A stretch of DNA of 55,772 nt, taken from positions 1-55,772 of the forward strand of contig CAZJZB010000005.1 in assembly GCA_964550425.1 (NCBI GenBank). Reading direction: 5' to 3'. Under the pieces are notes generated by a model. The model was given only the letters and a program-made list of their open reading frames with translations. It was not told the origin of the DNA and made no database searches. Position numbers and translations under genes: made by a program. Below, in pieces: positions 1 through 55,420 of this stretch (its first letter is position 1; each line of letters begins with the position of its first letter). Source of the stretch: an uncultured Candidatus Saccharibacteria bacterium (GTDB taxonomy: Bacteria; Patescibacteriota; Minisyncoccia; Phycocordibacterales; Phycocordibacteraceae).

Positions 1-3000
1 AGCGTTTGAATACAGGAGGCGGTTGGCGTTGATGGAGGAGAGGCCGGTGCCGCCGGAGGAGACCGGGAGCGCAGTGGTGAAGCTGGCGGATGCGGCAGAG
101 AGTGCGCCGCTAATGGAGGCAGTACCGGTAGCGGTGAGGTTCGCAAGAGATAGATTGCCGGAGAAGTATCCGTTGCCGTGCACCGAGAGGAGTGATGATG
201 GGCTCGTCGTCCCGATACCGACGTTGCCGCCGAGCGTGGCGAAGTACGCGGAGCCGGTAGAACCGATTTGTGTCGTGGAAGCATTGCCAAGCGTGGTGAG
301 ACCGGTGACGTTGAGGGTGGAGGTGGCGGTGAGTGCTCCGCCGAAGAAAGAGGAGCCGCTGGTGTAGAGGTTGCCTTGGACGGAGAGGAGTTGTGAAGGA
401 GAGGTGGTGCCGATGCCGACATTACCGCTTATTATCATATTCCCTGCGCCAGCATCTGTACCAACATAACTATTACCAAGCGATAAACCTCCCGTTGCAC
501 TTAAACGCATTCTCTCGTTTGTTGCTCCTACTCCATTTGTGGCGAAACGAATCGGATTAGAACCCAACGTAATCATGTTGAGACCGCCGACATCGGAAAT
601 CATGTATCCCTGATTAACTATAAGGCCATTGGTGTTTGTTGTTCCGCCTACACCAAATTCAACCCATCCAGTTCCAGCCAGACCACTGTCATTAAATGCG
701 CGATACCCTGCGGCCCCACTTGCGGAAGAATTTACTATTGCTGTGTATGAAGTTTCAGAGGCTTTAGACCCAGTGATTACCATTGGGATACTCACATTGC
801 TTGTGCTAATTGTTACCGTATTCTCAGTTTGGGAATTTTTTAATTCAAGAACCGAGTCCAGATTTCCGTTGCCTCTCCCGACTGCGAAAGCCAACTTTCC
901 ATTTACATTGTTAGAAGAAATGGAATCGACCACATATCGTATATCCGCAATATTTAAGAATTTAGAACCTTCATAAGCATTCGCACCGAACTCGCCCACA
1001 ATATCATTGGCCACCGATATTGTGGGGCTGGCCAGTGTCCCGCGAGAACCGAAAAGGGCCACATATGGGTAGACGGATGTCCCAGCCGTCTGCGCGTTCC
1101 AACCAGCAAAATTTGATTCTCTACGTATTATCGCGTCCATCGGGGCAGTCACATTGAACGTAGTAATTGGTGCCAAATTTGTACCGTTGCCCACAAGGAT
1201 AGCCGGAAGCGTGAGAGAGTCTCCAGCGTCCACCTGCAGTTTTGCCGCAGGACTCGTGGTGCCGATGCCGACGTTGCCGGTCGGATTGATGTAGAGCGAG
1301 CCAGCCGGAGCGCCCTGATTCACTGTGAAGGCGGTGTTGTGCGCGACGATACCGCCGAAGGCGTACTCGCCTTCGGCGGGAACTTGGAACTTGGAACTTA
1401 GTTCTTGGACGAGCCCCGATGCAAACTCGCGGAGAGAGCGCGTACCTGCCGCATCAAGGCGAGCGAGCGAGAGCGCAAGCTGTTGTACGAGTCCGTCTTC
1501 AACATCCCGAGATCTCTCGCGAGAGTCAGTGTCGTCAGCGTCTCGTTCAACGATCCGAGCGATATTGTCAAAAATCGCGCGAAGTCCGTCTTGCTCTGCC
1601 TGCCCTGCCCCTCCGCGATGTTGAGTGGTACCGAGAGAACCGCGCGACGCAATTGGCTTATTATTCCGAATTGCTCCGACTTCGGAAACGCCAAAGAAAC
1701 TTTGTATACATCTCGCGAGAGTGTCATCGCTTCCTGCCAAACGCGCAGCTTTTCGTAGTTTGGTTGCAAGTTCGCATCTTCGTTCATTGCTATCAGTGTA
1801 TTCCGCTAAGCTCCAAGCTCCAAGCTCCAAGCTCTGTCGCAGGACAACAAGCTCTTCCTGCTCGGACGTGAGCGCAGTATTCGTCCGAGCGTCTATATAA
1901 TGTCCTGCGATGAAATTATGCGTGCCCTCTATTTCAACGTCATAGACATCTTCTTCAGCGACCGATTCGACGGAAACGATGCGGTCCCAAATGCCGCCGC
2001 CGTCCGCGGCGGCGGCGATTTCCATACCCTCTTTCAGCTCCGATACTTTGAGCCAGGAACCCTCGCCTGCGCGGACGTTATCCACACCAGTTTTGGAGAT
2101 GCTTGACAGCCCAAGCAGGTCGGCTATACTCGTATTACCTTTCTTCAAGACCCGCCCGCGAGGCGGGTTTTGCGTTACCGCATCACCTCCTATCAGAAGG
2201 CCGGATATGAATTTATTAAACAGACCGAGCGTCACGAATTTGCCAGCGGCGAGCAAAAGTTCACCTGATAGATACTTGCGGTCAGAAACAACAGTGACGT
2301 TCTTGCCGAGTTCGCGCAGGTGTTTTACCAACGGCACAAAGTCGCCATCACCGGAGAAAAGTACGAAGTTGTCATACTCATCTGAAAACTTAAGCGCGTC
2401 AGTTGCAATTTCGACATCAAAATTCGCTTTTGGTTGAAGAAGCCGCACTCCTATCATATCGAGTCGCTTGGCCTCGCGCAAAAGATTTGTACGAAGATTA
2501 ACGGGCAACGCTTCAATCCAGCGACGATTGAAAGGCTTCTGAAGTAAACCGAGAAAACTGATATTAAAATACTGGACGGGTTTTGTAACAACCGTGTAGC
2601 CGAAGGAGGTAATCTTTGCGAAGAATGAAGATGATTTTTCGTTACGTATATCAGTACCGTAATAGAAACGAATCGCCGTAATACCAGCGGCAAAGAGCGT
2701 ATCATAGAGCACTTCCAGATCAATAGTTCGATAACCGCGATCGCGATACCCAGCTTTTATATTCGCAAAGTCGATAAATGCTACAGAACGCGAAAGGCCA
2801 CGAGCGATGCTCGTAGCCTCTCCGTAGGCAGGACGAGATGCGAATCCAGCAGCAACCAACTTTTTAAGCCGGCTCGCATCTCTTTCCCCGTACTGTCCTC
2901 CAGTTCCTGGTAGACCAGAGTGAGCGGATCCAGGGTTGCCTTCACCGCCGGGAACATCTACTGCAACACGCCGCGCCAGATACGGATGATTCGCCGTGGT

Positions 3001-5838
3001 GCGGATTGACTTCCCCGAGGCCGTGGTGAGTTTGTACGTCTGCTTTGTGCCCATGTATGCGAGACGCTTCACTTTTGACCACACAAGCTCACCTGTTTTT
3101 TCATCAAGCGATTGAATCTCGTCACTTTCTTTAATATTGATGATTTCAACTTCGTCATACACATACACATCATCAGCGAAATATGCACGACCGGCATGAT
3201 ACACTCTACGCAAGCCGGCAGCTCGGTGCGGGATCAGGTTTGTCACTCTGTGTCCCGAGGGTTCGATTCCCTCTGCCGGCTTGATTAGGTTATCCACAGG
3301 ACCATTTTGCGTACTTGACGTGGAAAACCAGTTTGCTATACTCCCTTTGACAAACCTGGTCCATCCGCCCGAGTGGGACATACGAGGGGAATCGCCATCC
3401 GCAAGGGTGGCGGTTTCCTTTTCCGCTCCGTCTTTCGGTTCTTCATAGAATTCCCAACCGGCGTCTTCAAGGTCCTTCTTGCTGCGACGCCGCCGCAACT
3501 TCGTATCCCCCGTCACGCACTGCCCCGCGACGAAGCCGCCGGCGAAGGTGCTGGTTGCCGTCGTGGATGTTGCAAAGAAATTCTGGGCGACAACTTGGCC
3601 CGCGACCGAGAGCAGTGAGTACGGACTCGTCGTCCCGATGCCGACGTTGCCTCCGGTGGTGGCGAGGTACGTATTCCCTGTTACAGTAAGTTGCGTTGTT
3701 GAAGCATTGCTATTGAATTGTTGAAGCGCGGTCCATGTGTTTGCATTGCCGAGATTGAGCGAGAGGGTTGTCGCTGAACCGCCCACGAGTGCGCCAAGAG
3801 AACCAGAAGAAGAGAGCGAGGAACCGACCGCGACGGATGAGGTGGCGACTGTAGAGAAGTTTCCATAATGAAGCTGGTCGCTTGTGAAAGACGTTTGGCC
3901 GGTGCCGCCGTTCCCAACCGCGAGCGTGCCGGTGATGTCTGTCCCGAGATTAACGAGAGCGGTTGCGACGCTTCCTGCGGTCGCTTTGAGGAAGCCGGAG
4001 AGGTTAGCAATGGATAGATTGGAGGTGAAGAGATTTGAGGATGAGGCGGTTGTTGCGAAAAAGTTGGTTGTGGTTGCGTTTGTGGTCGTGCTGTTGATCG
4101 CGAGGAGGTTCGGAAACGTATTGTTTGCCGTGGTGGTCGCGGTGAAGTATGCTGCCACCGTTTCGCCAACAACCGACAATTTTGCGTATGGCGAGGTAGT
4201 GCCGATGCCGACGTTGCTTTCGGAGGAAATGCTGAGTGTGGAGGTTGCGGTCAGAGTCGTGCCGACGTATGAAAGTGTCTGGCCTGCCGTACCGGAAGGA
4301 AGAGAGCCGGAGGAAAGACAAGTGCCGTTGACGGCGTAGCATTGGTTGGCGGGAATGTTGATGCCGTTGCCATAGAAGGTGGTGGTGCCGGTGGTGAAGT
4401 TGGCGATGCCTTCGATGGAGAGGAGTGAGCCGGGGGTGGTGGTGCCGATGCCGACAGAGCCGTTCTCAAGTACGGTGAAGAGTGTTGTTGAAGCGGAGTT
4501 TACGAAATTGACGAGTTTAGTTGAGCCAGTGCCAGCACCCCAGACGGTTAGTTTTGCATACGGGGTGGTAGTGCCAATGCCAAGATTGGTCCCATCAAAA
4601 ATCAAATTCGAGCTGTTGGCAAACCCTGAACCGTCAAAGTACTCGACACCGTTTGTCACCCCGCCGGTAGTAGTGCCCGTACCGCCATTTGCAATAGGGA
4701 GTGCTAAGCCGCTGTATGAGACAGTGAACGTACCCGCTGATGTGATAGGAGAGCCCGAGACAGAAAGGAATGAGGGGACCGATATTCCAGCGGAAGTAAT
4801 ACCTGTGCTGATACCGCCGCTAACAATGACGGCTCTGCCGCCGGTAGCAGAAATAATCGGGTGCTCCGGTGTGCCCGTAATAGAAATATTCGTACCGGCA
4901 GTGATTGAGTTAATGACGTTTGATGCGAACACGCGACCAGAGCCAGCGTTGATATCGGAATTGCCAGTGTCGATGCCTCCGAGTGTCTGTAGGCGGCCGC
5001 TGAACACCGAGAAACCGAGGGTCCGTAACGCGCCGCCAATCGCTACCGACCCCGCGTTGATATTGGAATTGCTCGTGTCGATGCCTCCGAGTGTCTGCAG
5101 GCGGCCGCTGAACACTGAAGATCCCGAAACTTGGAATGAGCCGTTAATCGCGACCGGGGTATTGATACTGAGGAGAGTGGTGCTTGACGCGTTTTGCGCA
5201 CTGTTGATTTTGTTCACCAAAGGTAACCCTGAGTTTTTTGTACTGGTTGCGGCGACTAATTTTGAATCTGCCGCGGGTGGCGGGGAAGATGTATTCTCGT
5301 TTCCTAATGATCGTACCAGAGCAAGAAGAGATGCGAATGCGGTCTTTACACCGTCGATAGCGGAGACGGAAGAATGTATCAAAAGGGTTGATGCCTCGGA
5401 TAGAATACTCGCAGCACTTTGTGTCGATGCACTTACTGAGATCCGTTCAGGAATTAAAAGTGATTGAACCGTACTATTGACCGTACTGAAGTTTGTTGAA
5501 ACGCTTGCGACAACAGCGACAACAGTGAGAGTCATCGCGATTCTACCAAGGGTTAAGAAAGGGTGTCGAGCACCCATATTCTGACTTGATCGATCACCTT
5601 GGTATTCTATTTTACGTTTTTTCGATAGATCCTCATTCAGATTCTTATTCTGATCCTCTTGCAAATCAATAAATTTCTTAAATGAGAGCTCATCAACATA
5701 CCAGGAATTTCCAATTTTTTCTCCATCTACTTTCCCAAAACGACACATCCTTGATATGTAGTCGTTTGTATATCCTACTCGCCGAGCAAGTTCTTTGGAT
5801 GAAACTAACTGACGATTTAAAAGATTTTTGTTTTTCAT
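1..5838 (-). CDS. Giant surface/fibre-like protein (3'-partial, at least 1946 aa): N-terminal HTH, TM segment, S/T/G-rich GNVGIGTT repeats, contains an intein
   Basis: ATG at 5838. Manual triplet check found no stop down to base 1. Starts MKNKNLLNRQLVSSKELARRVGYTNDYISRMCRFGKVDGEKIGNSWYV; hydrophobic LTLGRIAMTLTVVAVVASV; seven xxVGIGTTxP-type repeats. Missing from the ORF track because no stop lies in the window. Confidence 0.95.
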   Translation of the reverse strand, partial: MKNKNLLNRQLVSSKELARRVGYTNDYISRMCRFGKVDGEKIGNSWYVDELSFKKFIDLQEDQNKNLNEDLSKKRKIEYQGDRSSQNMGARHPFLTLGRIAMTLTVVAVVASVSTNFSTVNSTVQSLLIPERISVSASTQSAASILSEASTLLIHSSVSAIDGVKTAFASLLALVRSLGNENTSSPPPAADSKLVAATSTKNSGLPLVNKINSAQNASSTTLLSINTPVAINGSFQVSGSSVFSGRLQTLGGIDTSNSNINAGSVAIGGALRTLGFSVFSGRLQTLGGIDTGNSDINAGSGRVFASNVINSITAGTNISITGTPEHPIISATGGRAVIVSGGISTGITSAGISVPSFLSVSGSPITSAGTFTVSYSGLALPIANGGTGTTTGGVTNGVEYFDGSGFANSSNLIFDGTNLGIGTTTPYAKLTVWGAGTGSTKLVNFVNSASTTLFTVLENGSVGIGTTTPGSLLSIEGIANFTTGTTTFYGNGINIPANQCYAVNGTCLSSGSLPSGTAGQTLSYVGTTLTATSTLSISSESNVGIGTTSPYAKLSVVGETVAAYFTATTTANNTFPNLLAINSTTTNATTTNFFATTASSSNLFTSNLSIANLSGFLKATAGSVATALVNLGTDITGTLAVGNGGTGQTSFTSDQLHYGNFSTVATSSVAVGSSLSSSGSLGALVGGSATTLSLNLGNANTWTALQQFNSNASTTQLTVTGNTYLATTGGNVGIGTTSPYSLLSVAGQVVAQNFFATSTTATSTFAGGFVAGQCVTGDTKLRRRRSKKDLEDAGWEFYEEPKDGAEKETATLADGDSPRMSHSGGWTRFVKGSIANWFSTSSTQNGPVDNLIKPAEGIEPSGHRVTNLIPHRAAGLRRVYHAGRAYFADDVYVYDEVEIINIKESDEIQSLDEKTGELVWSKVKRLAYMGTKQTYKLTTASGKSIRTTANHPYLARRVAVDVPGGEGNPGSAHSGLPGTGGQYGERDASRLKKLVAAGFASRPAYGEATSIARGLSRSVAFIDFANIKAGYRDRGYRTIDLEVLYDTLFAAGITAIRFYYGTDIRNEKSSSFFAKITSFGYTVVTKPVQYFNISFLGLLQKPFNRRWIEALPVNLRTNLLREAKRLDMIGVRLLQPKANFDVEIATDALKFSDEYDNFVLFSGDGDFVPLVKHLRELGKNVTVVSDRKYLSGELLLAAGKFVTLGLFNKFISGLLIGGDAVTQNPPRGRVLKKGNTSIADLLGLSSISKTGVDNVRAGEGSWLKVSELKEGMEIAAAADGGGIWDRIVSVESVAEEDVYDVEIEGTHNFIAGHYIDARTNTALTSEQEELVVLRQSLELGAWSLAEYTDSNERRCELATKLRKAARLAGSDDTLARCIQSFFGVSEVGAIRNNKPIASRGSLGTTQHRGGAGQAEQDGLRAIFDNIARIVERDADDTDSRERSRDVEDGLVQQLALSLARLDAAGTRSLREFASGLVQELSSKFQVPAEGEYAFGGIVAHNTAFTVNQGAPAGSLYINPTGNVGIGTTSPAAKLQVDAGDSLTLPAILVGNGTNLAPITTFNVTAPMDAIIRRESNFAGWNAQTAGTSVYPYVALFGSRGTLASPTISVANDIVGEFGANAYEGSKFLNIADIRYVVDSISSNNVNGKLAFAVGRGNGNLDSVLELKNSQTENTVTISTSNVSIPMVITGSKASETSYTAIVNSSASGAAGYRAFNDSGLAGTGWVEFGVGGTTNTNGLIVNQGYMISDVGGLNMITLGSNPIRFATNGVGATNERMRLSATGGLSLGNSYVGTDAGAGNMIISGNVGIGTTSPSQLLSVQGNLYTSGSSFFGGALTATSTLNVTGLTTLGNASTTQIGSTGSAYFATLGGNVGIGTTSPSSLLSVHGNGYFSGNLSLANLTATGTASISGALSAASASFTTALPVSSGGTGLSSINANRLLYSNA
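1352..1379. repeat. 28-bp palindrome (REP-like), family member 1
   Basis: ccgccgaaggcg-tact-cgccttcggcgg, perfect 12-bp stem; similar element at 54069-54096. Confidence 0.8.
1379..1401. repeat. Heptamer tandem array (GGAACTT)x3+AG, downstream arm of the stem enclosing the four-helix gene
   Basis: ggaacttggaacttggaacttag; inverted relative to 1806-1828. Confidence 0.9.
1398..1787 (-). CDS. Four helix bundle protein (23S rRNA IVS protein / Avd-like family), nested out of frame inside the intein
   Basis: YEKLRVWQEAM..FPKSEQFGIISQLRRAVLSVPLNIAEGQGR..FLTISLGSLNET is the family signature; own ATG and TAA. Confidence 0.92.
   Translation of the reverse strand: MNEDANLQPNYEKLRVWQEAMTLSRDVYKVSLAFPKSEQFGIISQLRRAVLSVPLNIAEGQGRQSKTDFARFLTISLGSLNETLTTLTLARDLGMLKTDSYNSLRSRSLALMRQVRALSASLHRGSSKN
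1806..1834. repeat. Heptamer tandem array (AAGCTCC)x~4, upstream arm of the stem
   Basis: ctaagctccaagctccaagctccaagctc; reverse complement of 1806-1828 matches 1379-1401 at 20/23. Confidence 0.9.
2078..2130 (+). promoter_or_regulatory. DnaA-box-like 9-mer plus sigma70-type promoter, antisense inside the intein (module A)
   Basis: TTATCCACA(2078-2086)-N16-TTGACA(2103-2108)-N16-TATACT(2125-2130). Confidence 0.7.
2146..2172 (+). terminator. Terminator-like hairpin of module A
   Basis: caagacccgcc-cgcga-ggcgggttttg; the G-U pair and GCGA loop favour the + strand. Confidence 0.6.
2224..2784 (-). other. NYN (LabA/DUF88, PIN-like RNase) domain in frame within the intein
   Basis: VAFIDFANI...RFYYG...KANFDVEIATDAL...FVLFSGDGDFVPLVKHLRELGKNVTVVS; the acidic catalytic motifs are present. 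Confidence 0.9.
3211..3283 (+). ncRNA. tRNA-like structure (acceptor stem plus T-arm, reduced D-arm, GTC-containing loop)
   Basis: caagccggca/tgccggcttg 10-bp stem stacked on GAGGG-TTCGATT-CCCTC; CAGG-TTTGTCAC-TCTG arm; TGaTACACT extended -10-like motif at 3197-3205. Confidence 0.55.
3290..3342 (+). promoter_or_regulatory. DnaA-box-like 9-mer plus sigma70-type promoter, antisense inside the intein (module B)
   Basis: TTATCCACA(3290-3298)-N16-TTGACG(3315-3320)-N16-TATACT(3337-3342), with extended TG; same spacing as module A. Confidence 0.72.
3348..3422 (+). ncRNA. Putative ~75-nt small RNA
   Basis: Lies between promoter B and an intrinsic terminator; 5' end is estimated. Confidence 0.5.
3387..3422 (+). 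terminator. Intrinsic terminator of module B
   Basis: gggaatcgccatcc-GCAA-gggtggcggtttcc-tttt; 14-bp stem with three G-U pairs valid only on the + strand; GNRA loop. Confidence 0.75.
4946..5115. repeat. Intragenic direct repeat, ~62 bp x2, period 108 nt
   Basis: 4946-5007 vs 5054-5115; encodes VFSGRLQTLGGIDTxNSxINAG twice. Confidence 0.85.
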
Positions 5839-53794: not shown

Positions 53795-55420
53795 TTATAT
53801 CTCGTCTTTAAATACCTTCCGAAGCGCATCTTCGGGGACCTCAAAGGGTTTCTTCTCTGCTGCCGCTGGCTTTTTTGGTTGCTCGTCTCGTTGAGGATTT
53901 GGCGAAATGGGTTGGTTGTTGATTGTTGGTTGTTGTTGATTACGGATAATCACATCGGCAAGAACTTTCTTGAGCGACCGCTGATTTTGTGATTTTCTCT
54001 GCCCCATTTCCGCGCCGGTCTTCGCGGTCATGGTGCGTAGAATTGACTTGAGGTCTTCTGCTGATTTGCCGCCGGAGGCGGACCCGCCTCCGGCGGGAAA
54101 AGTATCGAATCTTTTTACCGGCAAGTTTGGACGTGTACTCGCAACATGCGGAGCAATGTTCTTTATCTGTTCGCGCGATACGGTATATTGCTCGCGCGAT
54201 GCAGCGATAACTTGTTCTTTATAGGAAATGGGCGGCGGCTCTATCGGGGGGATCGTTACCGCAGAGAATGGCGCCGACCTGACCCCGTCTATCATAAGCG
54301 TGAGATATATCTGCCGGCGATCGAGCACGACGACATCCTCCTTCGTGAATCTCGGCATGAAAATCGTCTCAAGCACTTCGGCGTCAGGGAGTCCGACACG
54401 GAAGACAACTATTGTGCCGACGTTGTCAAAAATAGCGTCGCGCACCCCTTTCTCCATCTGCTCTATGTACTGATGCGCAATAACAAGATTCAATTTGTAT
54501 GTGCGCGCCTCAGAAAGGATCTCTGCGAAGGTCTCGTTCGCGAAATTCTGGAACTCATCAATGTAGAAATAAAAATTCGGCAGTTTCGCAAGCCCTTCGA
54601 TAGGAAGATTCGCGCGGCTCATCGCGGCGAGGAATATGCGGGTCGTGAGCATGGAGCCGAGGAGACGCATACTGATCTCTCCTATGGGACCCTTGGAAAG
54701 ATTGATGATGAGGATTTTTTTCTCATCCATCATCGTGCGGATATCAAATGAAGATTTCGGTTGCCCGACAATGTTCCTGATGAGCGGGTTGCCGGTAAAT
54801 TGGCCGACCTTGTTCTGGATGGCAGATGTCGCCTCCTGCGTATAGCGGTCGGTATAGACCGCATATTCCTTCGTCCAGAAGTCCTTCACGACTGGATCTT
54901 TCACGTTCTCAACAACCTTTTTCCGGTACTCTTTGTCGGTATACATGCGGTTCACGCCCAAAAGGGTCGCGCCCGGATATTCAAGCAAAGCGAGGAGCGT
55001 GTTCGTGAGGATGTACTCCATGCGTGAGCTCCATGCGTCCACCCATATCTTCTTGAAAGTCGCCATCAGACCGCTCACGACAATGTGGCGTTTGTCGTAG
55101 CCGATATCCTCCATCACGTTGAACGCGATCGGATGCTCCAGATCAAACGGAGCGAAGTACACCACGTCCTGTATGCGGTCTTCAGGAATATAATCGAGAA
55201 GCCGATCAACGGTTCCCCCGTGCGGATCAATGAAGGCGAATCCTTCGCCGTTCCTGAGATCCTGAATCGCCATGTTTTCGAGCAGGGTCGACTTGCCCAT
55301 ACCGGTCTTGCCGATGATATACATGTGACGATCCCGATCCTTCGCCTTGATGCCGAAAGGCACATACTTCCCTCGCGAATCAGTTGCCGCGAAGTAGGTA
55401 ACGCGTTCCGGATTCTCCAT
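53795..55420 (-). CDS. VirD4/TraG/TrwB-like ATPase
   Basis: RHMYIIGKTGMGKS, IDPHG, YIDEFQNF, AHQY. Confidence 0.9.
   Translation of the reverse strand: MENPERVTYFAATDSRGKYVPFGIKAKDRDRHMYIIGKTGMGKSTLLENMAIQDLRNGEGFAFIDPHGGTVDRLLDYIPEDRIQDVVYFAPFDLEHPIAFNVMEDIGYDKRHIVVSGLMATFKKIWVDAWSSRMEYILTNTLLALLEYPGATLLGVNRMYTDKEYRKKVVENVKDPVVKDFWTKEYAVYTDRYTQEATSAIQNKVGQFTGNPLIRNIVGQPKSSFDIRTMMDEKKILIINLSKGPIGEISMRLLGSMLTTRIFLAAMSRANLPIEGLAKLPNFYFYIDEFQNFANETFAEILSEARTYKLNLVIAHQYIEQMEKGVRDAIFDNVGTIVVFRVGLPDAEVLETIFMPRFTKEDVVVLDRRQIYLTLMIDGVRSAPFSAVTIPPIEPPPISYKEQVIAASREQYTVSREQIKNIAPHVASTRPNLPVKRFDTFPAGGGSASGGKSAEDLKSILRTMTAKTGAEMGQRKSQNQRSLKKVLADVIIRNQQQPTINNQPISPNPQRDEQPKKPAAAEKKPFEVPEDALRKVFKDEI
54069..54096. 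repeat. 28-bp palindrome (REP-like), family member 2, inside a coding linker
   Basis: ccgccggaggcg-gacc-cgcctccggcgg; encodes PAGGGSASGG. Confidence 0.8.

Follow-up and report, generated by a model that had tools for sequence, protein, structure and literature searches.

The window analyzed here is a stretch of 55,772 nucleotides. On its minus strand lies the gene for a giant protein whose ORF runs from 5838 to 1 (1946 aa) and is still open at the window end. The N-terminus of this protein is an HTH-like segment, and homologous giant proteins are found at loci L005, L058, L138, and L151. The gene carries an intein, and a cassette with a four-helix-bundle (FHB) gene is inserted in the intein. 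The features are as follows.

1..5838, minus strand: host gene for a giant repeat-rich surface-type protein (ORF call)
1336..3519, minus strand: intein, 728 aa (Pfam Intein_splicing, 5.9e-13, and TIGR intein N- and C-terminal models)
2227..2778, minus strand: NYN (PIN-like nuclease) domain in the intein frame (PF01936, 1.4e-21, residues 262-445 of the translated stretch)
1357..1902, minus strand: entire insertion of 546 nt (182 host codons), separating intein blocks F and G (comparison with the uninterrupted inteins of L005 and L010)
1837..1910, minus strand: hairpin 1, 10-bp closing stem with arms 1901-1910 and 1837-1846 (fold)
1806..1834, minus strand: 5' array of about four heptamers (GGAGCTT on the sense strand), of which 1806-1828 is the 5' stem arm (TRF and fold)
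1398..1787, minus strand: FHB gene of 129 codons and a stop, shifted to frame +1 of the host (ORF call and profiles)
1379..1401, minus strand: 3' array of three heptamers (AAGTTCC on the sense strand), which is the 3' stem arm (TRF and fold)
1352..1379, minus strand: hairpin 3, perfect 12 bp, G+C-rich, 4-nt loop (inverted-repeat search and fold)

The element at 1336..3519 has the motifs of an intein (Hint domain) and is predicted to splice. The first Cys, the Thr..His of block B, block F, and the terminal His-Asn followed by Thr(+1) are all present in the translation, based on a by-eye alignment to L005 and L010. The NYN domain occupies the position where a homing endonuclease usually sits. 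In the inteins of L005 and L010, block F directly joins block G without an insertion. By this comparison, the span 1379-1834 given originally, which is 456 nt as stated, appears too short, and the insertion is delimited to 1357-1902, including two extra hairpins. It is in-frame and palindromic, lies within the open host frame, and is predicted to be translated.

The 129-aa protein is assigned by profile to the PF05635/TIGR02436 four-helix-bundle family, the family of 23S rRNA intervening sequence (IVS) proteins. It matches PF05635 with an E-value of 1.4e-35 (122.1 bits; cut-off 33.8), TIGR02436 with 1.6e-32 (111.9 bits; cut-off 24), and PDB 2GSC chain A with 2.3e-22 over residues 6-124. As the original prediction had it, the gene is nested on the same strand in a shifted frame, and the host frame is stop-free across its whole length. 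No ribosome-binding site is evident by eye upstream of the FHB start.

Period 7 was detected by TRF at 1379-1399 (3.0 copies) and at 1808-1834 (3.9 copies), both with 100% matches. The two arrays pair over 23 bp between 1806-1828 and 1379-1401, with 20 Watson-Crick and three G-U pairs on the sense strand, and the 3' arm contains the FHB stop codon. This stem appears both when 1360-1850 is folded (MFE) and in a fold of 670 nt. No other inverted repeat in the 55.7-kb window reaches 20/23 within 650 nt, and none of such quality was found in 10 first-order Markov resamples of the window. The stem of inverted heptamer flanks that had been proposed is thus confirmed. The closing stem of hairpin 1 joins the final block-F codons to the end of a 23-codon leader (z = -4.7; 0/200 shuffles as stable). 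The 3' arm of hairpin 3 extends into the first block-G codons (z = -6.1; 0/200 shuffles as stable). Palindromes resembling hairpin 3 are present four times in the genome, this one and three elsewhere.

Contigs of four DNA runs were compared, and the run that is probably the source has an identical contig of 3599 nt. The contig joints 1399>1808 and 1399>1813 were discounted because their shorter side has only ~21 letters; they most likely derive from other heptamer repeats and are unusable.

Orthologous loci and constraint on frames and stems

The same insertion is found in two orthologs, L054 and L144, both diverged, whose FHB proteins are 61% and 72% identical, respectively. In both, the host frame stays open from one contig end to the other (557 and 530 codons), and the host product of L144 is present in the protein database (P0001). 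Between this locus and L054, 78 of 127 positions are identical in the FHB frame, 47 of 127 in the host frame, and 45 of 126 in the third frame. The comparison between L058 and L138 gives similar values: 66/124, 45/124, and 46/123 in the same order. The nested FHB frame is therefore under purifying selection, as expected from the original prediction, and appears to be the only one under amino-acid constraint. The host frame seems merely to be kept stop-free, its conservation being like that of a non-coding frame.

All three stems are found in L054 and L144, where the sequences differ and complementarity is kept. Between this locus and L054, hairpin 1 shows one double change over 9 pairs; of the 20 pairs in the heptamer stem, five are doubly changed, one is singly changed, and none is broken; hairpin 3 shows two double changes over 11 pairs. 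Compensatory changes in palindromes can also be generated by template switching and not by selection. When folded singly, the three hairpins fold in this locus, L054, and L144, with z between -4.2 and -6.1 and 0/200 shuffles as stable. Hairpin 3 is 12 bp in L054 and 11 bp in L144, with a different sequence; its "broken" pairs in L144 are an artefact of a one-column slip in the three-way MAFFT alignment. In a relative, represented by a contig of 189 nt (run X3), the 5' arm of hairpin 3 differs at 8 of its 12 positions, which counts against the reading preferred below.

The three G-U pairs, which are A-C on the other strand, had been taken as a sign that any selection acts on the mRNA. This argument fails because the three pairs represent one unit difference copied three times, because L144 carries a sense-strand A-C mismatch, and because there is no sense-strand wobble bias family-wide (40 sense-type vs. 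57 antisense-type).

The cassette family in other genomes and genes

FHB cassettes are observed in 102 of the 201 genomes of the order. They are multi-copy, with up to 9 per genome, in varied contexts. Inverted period-7 arrays surround FHB genes across the family (lag-7 identity 0.41 vs. 0.28, n = 84). Flank pairing was scored by aligning the 5' flank locally with the reverse-complemented 3' flank, and mismatched flanks served as controls. RNAduplex on 130-nt flanks was set aside because multi-loop energies were inflated. Complementary period-7 flanks with covariation, expected from the original prediction, are thus found family-wide as well as in the two orthologs. Of 40 loci sampled from this class of FHB genes, none is located in LSU rRNA, and the LSU rRNA of this genome is on contig C18.

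Nine of 107 unique FHB genes have a stop-free frame -1 in a long host ORF (530 to 1433 codons), a ratio which is not a frequency, as this set is enriched for relatives of the present cassette. In an unbiased order-level sample, 1 of 33 FHB genes is in-ORF, and it is this cassette. Frame +1 is stop-free in only one of the 107 genes, over only 165 codons. The first set of 61 FHB genes, including six in-ORF ones, showed a mean of 9.25 stops in frame -1. T at third positions before AA/AG/GA codons is absent (0/30, 0/29, 0/43, 0/43, 0/31, and 0/37). The synonymous-codon shuffle is not significant for this cassette alone (P = 0.10); for L054, P is 0.16. TTAG units in the 5' array number 1/4, 1/4, and 0/4 in the in-ORF orthologs, and 2/4 and 5/5 in the nearest free cassettes, L110 and L055.

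The nine in-ORF cassettes represent five contexts, namely two different positions in inteins, one DNA methylase gene, one ORF of unknown identity, and the linker of a surface protein. The host of L058 is an intein (Intein_splicing, 2.3e-29), that of L070 is an N6_N4 DNA methylase (2e-29), that of L060 is an ORF without Pfam match, and that of L151 is a giant protein whose N-terminus is integrase SAM-like. In L058, L059, and L138, the FHB gene occupies the endonuclease position of the intein. No enclosing stem was found around intein-nested cassettes of the L058/L138 type, and stems are therefore unnecessary for life inside an ORF. FHB-less solo heptamer hairpins were found in the host ORF of L070 by a tandem-repeat scan. 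On a quick tree, the in-ORF label needs four changes, at least two of which are forced. All nine in-ORF cassettes are on the sense strand of the host, where antisense host frames were checked for open frames only; this orientation fits dependence on host transcription.

Interpretation and comparison with known systems

The best explanation for this anatomy, the conserved arrangement, the open frames, the covariation of stems, and the recurrence in other hosts is a promoter-less IVS-type selfish cassette, which is placed in-frame in the intein, read through by host ribosomes, and removed with the intein. The probability of this reading is estimated at about 0.68. The cassette, putatively mobile and composed of the FHB gene in the loop of the heptamer stem and two flanking hairpins, would have been inserted in-frame in the loop that connects blocks F and G. 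Ribosomes translating the host would pass through the insert in frame -1 relative to FHB, adding ~182 polar residues to the intein. Intein and insertion would then leave together by protein splicing, and the mature host protein would therefore be unaffected. The intein may thus serve as a safe harbour for the cassette. The FHB gene would remain functional while the host frame only avoids stops. Frame -1 can always be kept clear of stops by synonymous NNT-to-NNC choices in FHB, together with heptamer units lacking an in-frame TAG.

The palindromic stems are probably maintained actively. Judging from rRNA IVSs, their likeliest role would be cleavage of a fraction of transcripts by RNase III, whose gene is present in the genome, to free the FHB mRNA. 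The authors of the Coxiella study state, in the part of the article available, that the IVS ORF is probably untranslated after RNase III excision (PMC4990558), which weakens the idea that cleavage serves the release of FHB mRNA.

It is unlikely, but deserves consideration, that the palindromes act as DNA. They could be ends for a trans-acting hairpin-binding transposase of the Y1/HUH type, like IS200/IS605-derived elements or REPs, or be kept perfect by template-switch repair; the cassette would then be mobile DNA, and RNA processing would be irrelevant. The unbiased wobbles, the A-C mismatch of L144, the multiplicity of cassettes in varied contexts, the four hairpin-3-like palindromes, and the solo heptamer hairpins in the L070 host ORF are consistent with this. 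So is one Y1_Tnp-like gene elsewhere in the genome, on contig C3, which is a candidate only (30.2 bits; cut-off 23). Hairpins lie at both cassette ends. On the other hand, neither a target-site rule, an empty site in a close strain, nor a link between Y1 and the cassette emerged, and the sense orientation of 9/9 in-ORF cassettes fits the need for host transcription.

Fragmentation is harmless to rRNA but would destroy mRNA. Removal at the RNA level, proposed originally as excision or bypass, is very improbable. By this explanation, the 456-nt stem-loop or the 546-nt three-hairpin unit would be excised and the ends rejoined, or ribosomes would bypass it, and the insert would be untranslated in the host frame. 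Both lengths are multiples of 3, and the three-way junction in the fold places the codons of blocks F and G next to each other. Related rRNA IVSs are excised by RNase III, but without ligation after excision, as far as the available part of the source describes (PMC4990558). RtcB was not found in this genome, which is estimated to be 100% complete, and RtcB-type religation is therefore unlikely. As for ribosomal bypass, take-off and landing signals were not identified. A stop-free frame would be needless if the segment were removed from the RNA, yet the insert is stop-free in the host frame in three orthologs and six cassettes in other hosts. This argues for read-through and removal with the intein, and against excision or bypass.

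A decaying relic, in which either a dead FHB gene leaves the host frame as the only one that counts, or the host is a pseudogene with an open frame by chance, would fit the P of only 0.10 in the synonymous shuffle and the lack of an evident ribosome-binding site. It is hardly credible, however: FHB scores 122 bits, comparable to free copies, and its frame is much more conserved than either of the others, while the host ORF is open over 1946 codons, no intein motif is damaged, and the arrangement is retained in three diverged lineages.

The preferred reading of a cassette translated through and spliced out with the intein can be extended, although the extension as a whole is tentative and rather doubtful. 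FHB cassettes would form a widespread class of parasitic genes that lack promoters and are carried within transcripts of the host, be they ribosomal, intergenic, or coding. The period-7 arms would be multi-purpose: they would form a stem recognized by RNase III or as a hairpin, and TAG-bearing arms would supply stop codons in all three frames. As 7 mod 3 = 1, slippage in the arms could retune the reading frame. One sub-lineage would have adapted repeatedly to ORFs by overprinting in frame -1. In bacteria of the candidate phyla radiation (CPR), inteins in the genes of giant surface proteins would be landing pads for selfish genes nested in them, such as FHB, NYN, and a DUF433/DUF5615 pair in antisense.

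What IVS-type FHB genes do, and how they move, has been an open question since their discovery in rRNA. The same type of cassette is found here inside coding genes, where its translation is inferred, with stable dual-coding and a simple frame rule (-1). It provides a testable model for a gene-carrying selfish element that enters coding sequence without killing the host gene, and a natural case of a large insertion accommodated right before the last intein strand. The inverted period-7 arrays are a family-wide signature for finding and classifying FHB elements. Gene callers will overlook either the nested gene or the read-through, which is a warning for annotation. In a search of the open-access literature, neither FHB genes within inteins or ORFs nor FHB cassettes with heptamer flanks beyond rRNA were found to have been described.

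The cassette shares its protein family with the 23S rRNA IVSs carrying S23p/FHB ORFs (Leptospira, Coxiella, and the Xanthomonas-type protein 2GSC), and like them it has no promoter of its own. The IVS-like character that had been predicted is well supported by the Coxiella 23S IVS. The available part of that study documents both heptamer repeats and excision by RNase III; there, as here, the ORF is in the loop of a ~23-28 bp terminal inverted-repeat stem, and tandem heptamer repeats precede it (PMC4990558). Unlike the 23S rRNA IVSs, the cassette sits in-frame in a protein-coding ORF whose frame is kept open.

Avd of diversity-generating retroelements (DGRs) has a homologous four-helix-bundle fold and belongs to the same family, according to the part of the source available (PMC10053308). 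The reverse transcriptase profile PF00078 has no match in this genome, estimated to be 100% complete, and a DGR identity was therefore rejected.

Homing-endonuclease genes are also selfish genes housed in inteins. A homing endonuclease is a same-frame part of the intein polypeptide, whereas FHB is out-of-frame and would be a separate product. PF05635 is not known to have a nuclease motif.

Overprinted gene pairs likewise have two long same-strand open frames, here over ~390 nt. In contrast to pairs born de novo, this overlap appears to have arisen by the insertion of a ready-made gene into the host frame, and only one of the two cassette frames seems to be under amino-acid constraint.

Rickettsia palindromic elements (RPEs) and MITEs are likewise palindromic selfish in-frame insertions, tolerated and translated in coding genes, as described in the available part of the source (PMC10969869). 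RPEs are ~150 bp and gene-free, whereas the cassette carries a conserved 129-aa gene in another frame and is thus a dual-coding insert. Unlike RPEs, it is also hidden in an intein, with which it is predicted to splice out.

Host intein and extent of the insertion

The window corresponds to contig C5 in a genome of 738 kb and 28 contigs (G000, ~50% G+C). A protein encoded on an orthologous contig carries the class label Minisyncoccia (candidate phyla radiation, CPR). The features under discussion are as follows.

5838 to the window's first base, minus strand: host ORF, 1946 aa, repeat-rich, of the surface-protein type
Host residues 774-1501, minus strand: intein, from profile matches and splicing motifs in the translation
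2227-2778, minus strand, in the intein frame: NYN nuclease domain (PF01936, 1.4e-21)
1837-1910: hairpin 1, the 23-codon leader of the insertion (part 1) folded with the last block-F codons
1806-1828 with 1379-1401: heptamer stem, whose stem-loop encloses the nested gene (part 2)
1398-1787, minus strand like the intein, one base off its frame: nested gene, 129 aa
1352-1379: hairpin 3, a perfect 12 bp, whose 3' arm enters block G (part 3)

The host ORF matches the Pfam Intein_splicing model at 5.9e-13, and the TIGR models for the intein N- and C-termini match too. The first Cys, block B, block F, and the terminal His-Asn followed by Thr are present. The NYN (PIN-like nuclease) domain occupies the usual place of the homing endonuclease. 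A related intein in genome G043 (locus L005) also bears NYN. The orthologous intein of metagenome contig L054 has, in place of NYN, two antisense genes that match DUF433 (1.4e-21) and DUF5615/Mut7-C-like (2.9e-11) and lie at 155-752 on the locus's minus strand; the intein frame is open across both. The two genes resemble a toxin-antitoxin pair. The giant host ORF contains a 108-nt tandem repeat (4932-5156, 2.1 copies, 80% matches). At another locus, L058, one mini-intein start occurs twice in a single 1433-codon giant ORF, which suggests that this intein spread between repeats of its host gene.

In two related inteins without the insertion (L005 and L010, from other genomes), block F passes directly into block G. 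Measured against them, the insertion is 1357-1902, or 546 nt (182 host codons), which exceeds the span first reported. The same insertion is present at the same intein position in L054 and in the genome contig L144 (host product P0001), whose nested proteins are 61% and 72% identical to that of the window. In both contigs the host frame has no stop from end to end (557 and 530 codons, respectively), and each of the three orthologs retains a full set of intact splicing motifs. Counting hairpin 3, nearly identical palindromes occur four times in G000; the places noted elsewhere are window 54069-54096 and 53911-53935, C4:23589, and C18:7515. Close to the end of the window, one such palindrome falls within an ORF of 541 aa, and a period-7 array is ~135 nt away.

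The nested gene and its reading frame

By its profile matches, the 129-aa ORF is clearly a four-helix-bundle (FHB) "23S rRNA IVS protein" (PF05635, 122 bits, cut-off 33.8; TIGR02436; PDB 2GSC, 2.3e-22). Its start codon is 19 nt past the 5' arm of the heptamer stem, and its stop codon is inside the 3' arm. Between the window and L054, 78/127 residues are identical in the FHB frame, 47/127 in the host frame, and 45/126 in the non-coding third frame. A second ortholog pair, L058 and L138, gives 66/124, 45/124, and 46/123, respectively. The FHB frame is conserved and the host frame is no better than the third frame. Purifying selection thus acts on the nested gene, as the original prediction required, and the host frame is just kept open. 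The products of frame -1 are more polar than FHB (GRAVY -0.37 to -1.16 and -0.16 to -0.84, respectively), which fits a tolerated loop. Two further FHB genes of G000 are intergenic (C2:65296-65607 and C9:3998-4315). One, between secA-like and obg-like genes, is flanked by sequences that pair on visual inspection; the second precedes a VirB4-like ORF, and a clear stem is absent there.

In frame -1, a host codon consists of the third base of one FHB codon and the first two bases of the next. This frame is stop-free in 9 of 107 unique complete FHB genes, a sample enriched for relatives of the window cassette, and stays open for 530-1433 codons, mostly limited by the locus end. Frame +1 is stop-free in 1/107, for just 165 codons. 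Frame -1 contained 9.25 stops on average in the first set (61 genes, six in-ORF). In the unbiased order-level set, one of 33 FHB cassettes is inside an ORF. Cassettes within ORFs are thus recurrent, in every case in frame -1, and their host contexts are five.

Block F/G loop of the window's intein: window, L054, L144
Endonuclease position of a mini-intein in similar giant proteins (Intein_splicing, 2.3e-29): L058, L059, L138
N6_N4 DNA methylase: L070
904-codon ORF with no Pfam match: L060
Linker of a giant protein with an integrase SAM-like N-terminus: L151

In a quick maximum-likelihood tree, the in-ORF label requires four changes, at least two of them forced by well-supported branches. The nearest relatives of the window cassette are two free intergenic cassettes of the same heptamer family, L110 and L055. 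The nearest, L110 (G361 C8), has identical heptamer units and lies immediately 5' of where a homologous giant-protein gene starts.

Third-position T before AA, AG, or GA codons is absent from the six in-ORF genes tested (0/30, 0/29, 0/43, 0/43, 0/31, and 0/37). Under synonymous shuffling, P was 0.10 for the window, 0.16 for L054, and 5e-5, <5e-5, 2.5e-4, and 3.8e-3 for the other four. We infer that frame -1 is used because a synonymous NNT-to-NNC change is always available to remove its stops, which is not so for the stops of frame +1 (e.g., ATG-A). TTAG units make up 1/4, 1/4, and 0/4 of the 5' array in the in-ORF orthologs, with the remaining TAG outside the host frame, against 2/4 and 5/5 in free relatives. 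In L070, the heptamer unit that would meet the host frame is without TAG. The methylase ORF of L070 contains more period-7 arrays of the same units (2362-2394, 2548-2597, and 2608-2640), including one adjoining pair of 5'-type and 3'-type arrays without an FHB gene, which looks like a solo hairpin translated in-frame. In two high-G+C loci, L076 and L174, the FHB gene is spanned by a stop-free antisense frame, whose open length is 598 and 950 codons, respectively. It may represent a host ORF of the opposite strand or an artefact of high G+C.

Stems and the fate of the cassette

The 23-bp heptamer stem has 20 Watson-Crick and three G-U pairs on the sense strand, and appears in MFE folds. Both arms are perfect period-7 arrays in a tandem-repeat scan. 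It is the sole inverted repeat of at least 20/23 within 650 nt across the 55.7-kb window, and 10 Markov resamples of the window contained none. The stem is real, not chance. The window and L054 share all of the stems although the sequence differs: double changes number one in the nine pairs of hairpin 1, five in the 20 pairs of the heptamer stem (with one single change and no broken pair), and two in the 11 pairs of hairpin 3. The six flanking hairpins, folded singly, have z of -4.2 to -6.1, and none of 200 shuffles was equally stable. Compensatory changes in palindromes may be mutational in origin. In one short contig of a relative, 8/12 positions differ in one arm of hairpin 3.

Our best estimate from these sequences is that the host ribosome would translate straight through the cassette, and that protein splicing would drop the intein along with its 182-residue passenger. 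In engineered split inteins, a break immediately ahead of the last strand is tolerated. The stems would be maintained to benefit the element itself; their likeliest role is that RNase III cuts a fraction of the transcripts and thereby would free the FHB mRNA. The RNase III gene, rnc, is present in G000. The 7-nt period could permit frame retuning via slippage, since 7 mod 3 is 1.

Alternatively, the stems would act as DNA hairpins recognised by a mobilising enzyme. G000 has a Y1_Tnp-like (HUH transposase) gene (C3:2475-2645 in a 257-codon open frame; 30.2 bits, cut-off 23), which possibly mobilises hairpin elements. In the L058-type intein cassettes no stem was seen, which counts against the stems being necessary.

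The data do not favour excision or bypass of the cassette, as originally proposed: were the segment taken out of the mRNA, the host frame would have no need to lack stops, yet it is stop-free in three orthologs and six other cassettes. RtcB was not found in G000, which counts against excision with rejoining; in rRNA IVS excision, as described in PMC4990558, the fragments stay unjoined. The G-U pairs, too, had been read as selection on the mRNA; this argument fails. They are one unit difference copied three times (GGAGCTT against the complement of AAGTTCC). The 5' arm of L144 uses the fully complementary unit, and L144 has an A-C mismatch on the sense strand. Family-wide, wobbles across well-paired arms are 40 of the sense type and 57 of the antisense type.

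Period-7 arms in the FHB family

PF05635 genes are present in 102 of 201 sampled genomes of the same order, with at most nine per genome, and the FHB protein query matches 109 of 401 genomes of the class (E <= 1e-15). None of 40 sampled FHB loci is in LSU rRNA. The partial 23S rRNA of G000 (C18:8899-11957) fits the model in four pieces, with several hundred extra bases separating or stretching them; none of these large insertions contains an FHB gene.

The proposal of an IVS-like cassette is borne out, and complementary heptamer flanks with covariation are found across the family. Among 84 cassettes whose flanks are complete, self-identity at lag 7 is 0.41 in the 70 nt before the start and 0.40 in the 70 nt after the stop, against 0.26-0.30 at other lags and 0.28 in a control segment. 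TAG is repeated at least three times at exact 7-nt spacing in 22/77 non-ORF 5' flanks, and its complement CTA in 14/77 3' flanks; at this spacing, repeated TAG puts a stop into each of the three frames. Flank complementarity is above the 99th percentile of 400 mismatched-flank pairings in 30/86 cassettes and above the 95th in 46/86.

The 23S IVS of Coxiella, as described in PMC4990558, has heptamer repeats before its ORF, whose copy number is variable and differs between strains, and a 28-bp stem, with excision by RNase III. That paper records the heptamers at a local level only. Because our survey and the heptamers of the Coxiella IVS agree, the period-7 arms look like a family trait of FHB cassettes.
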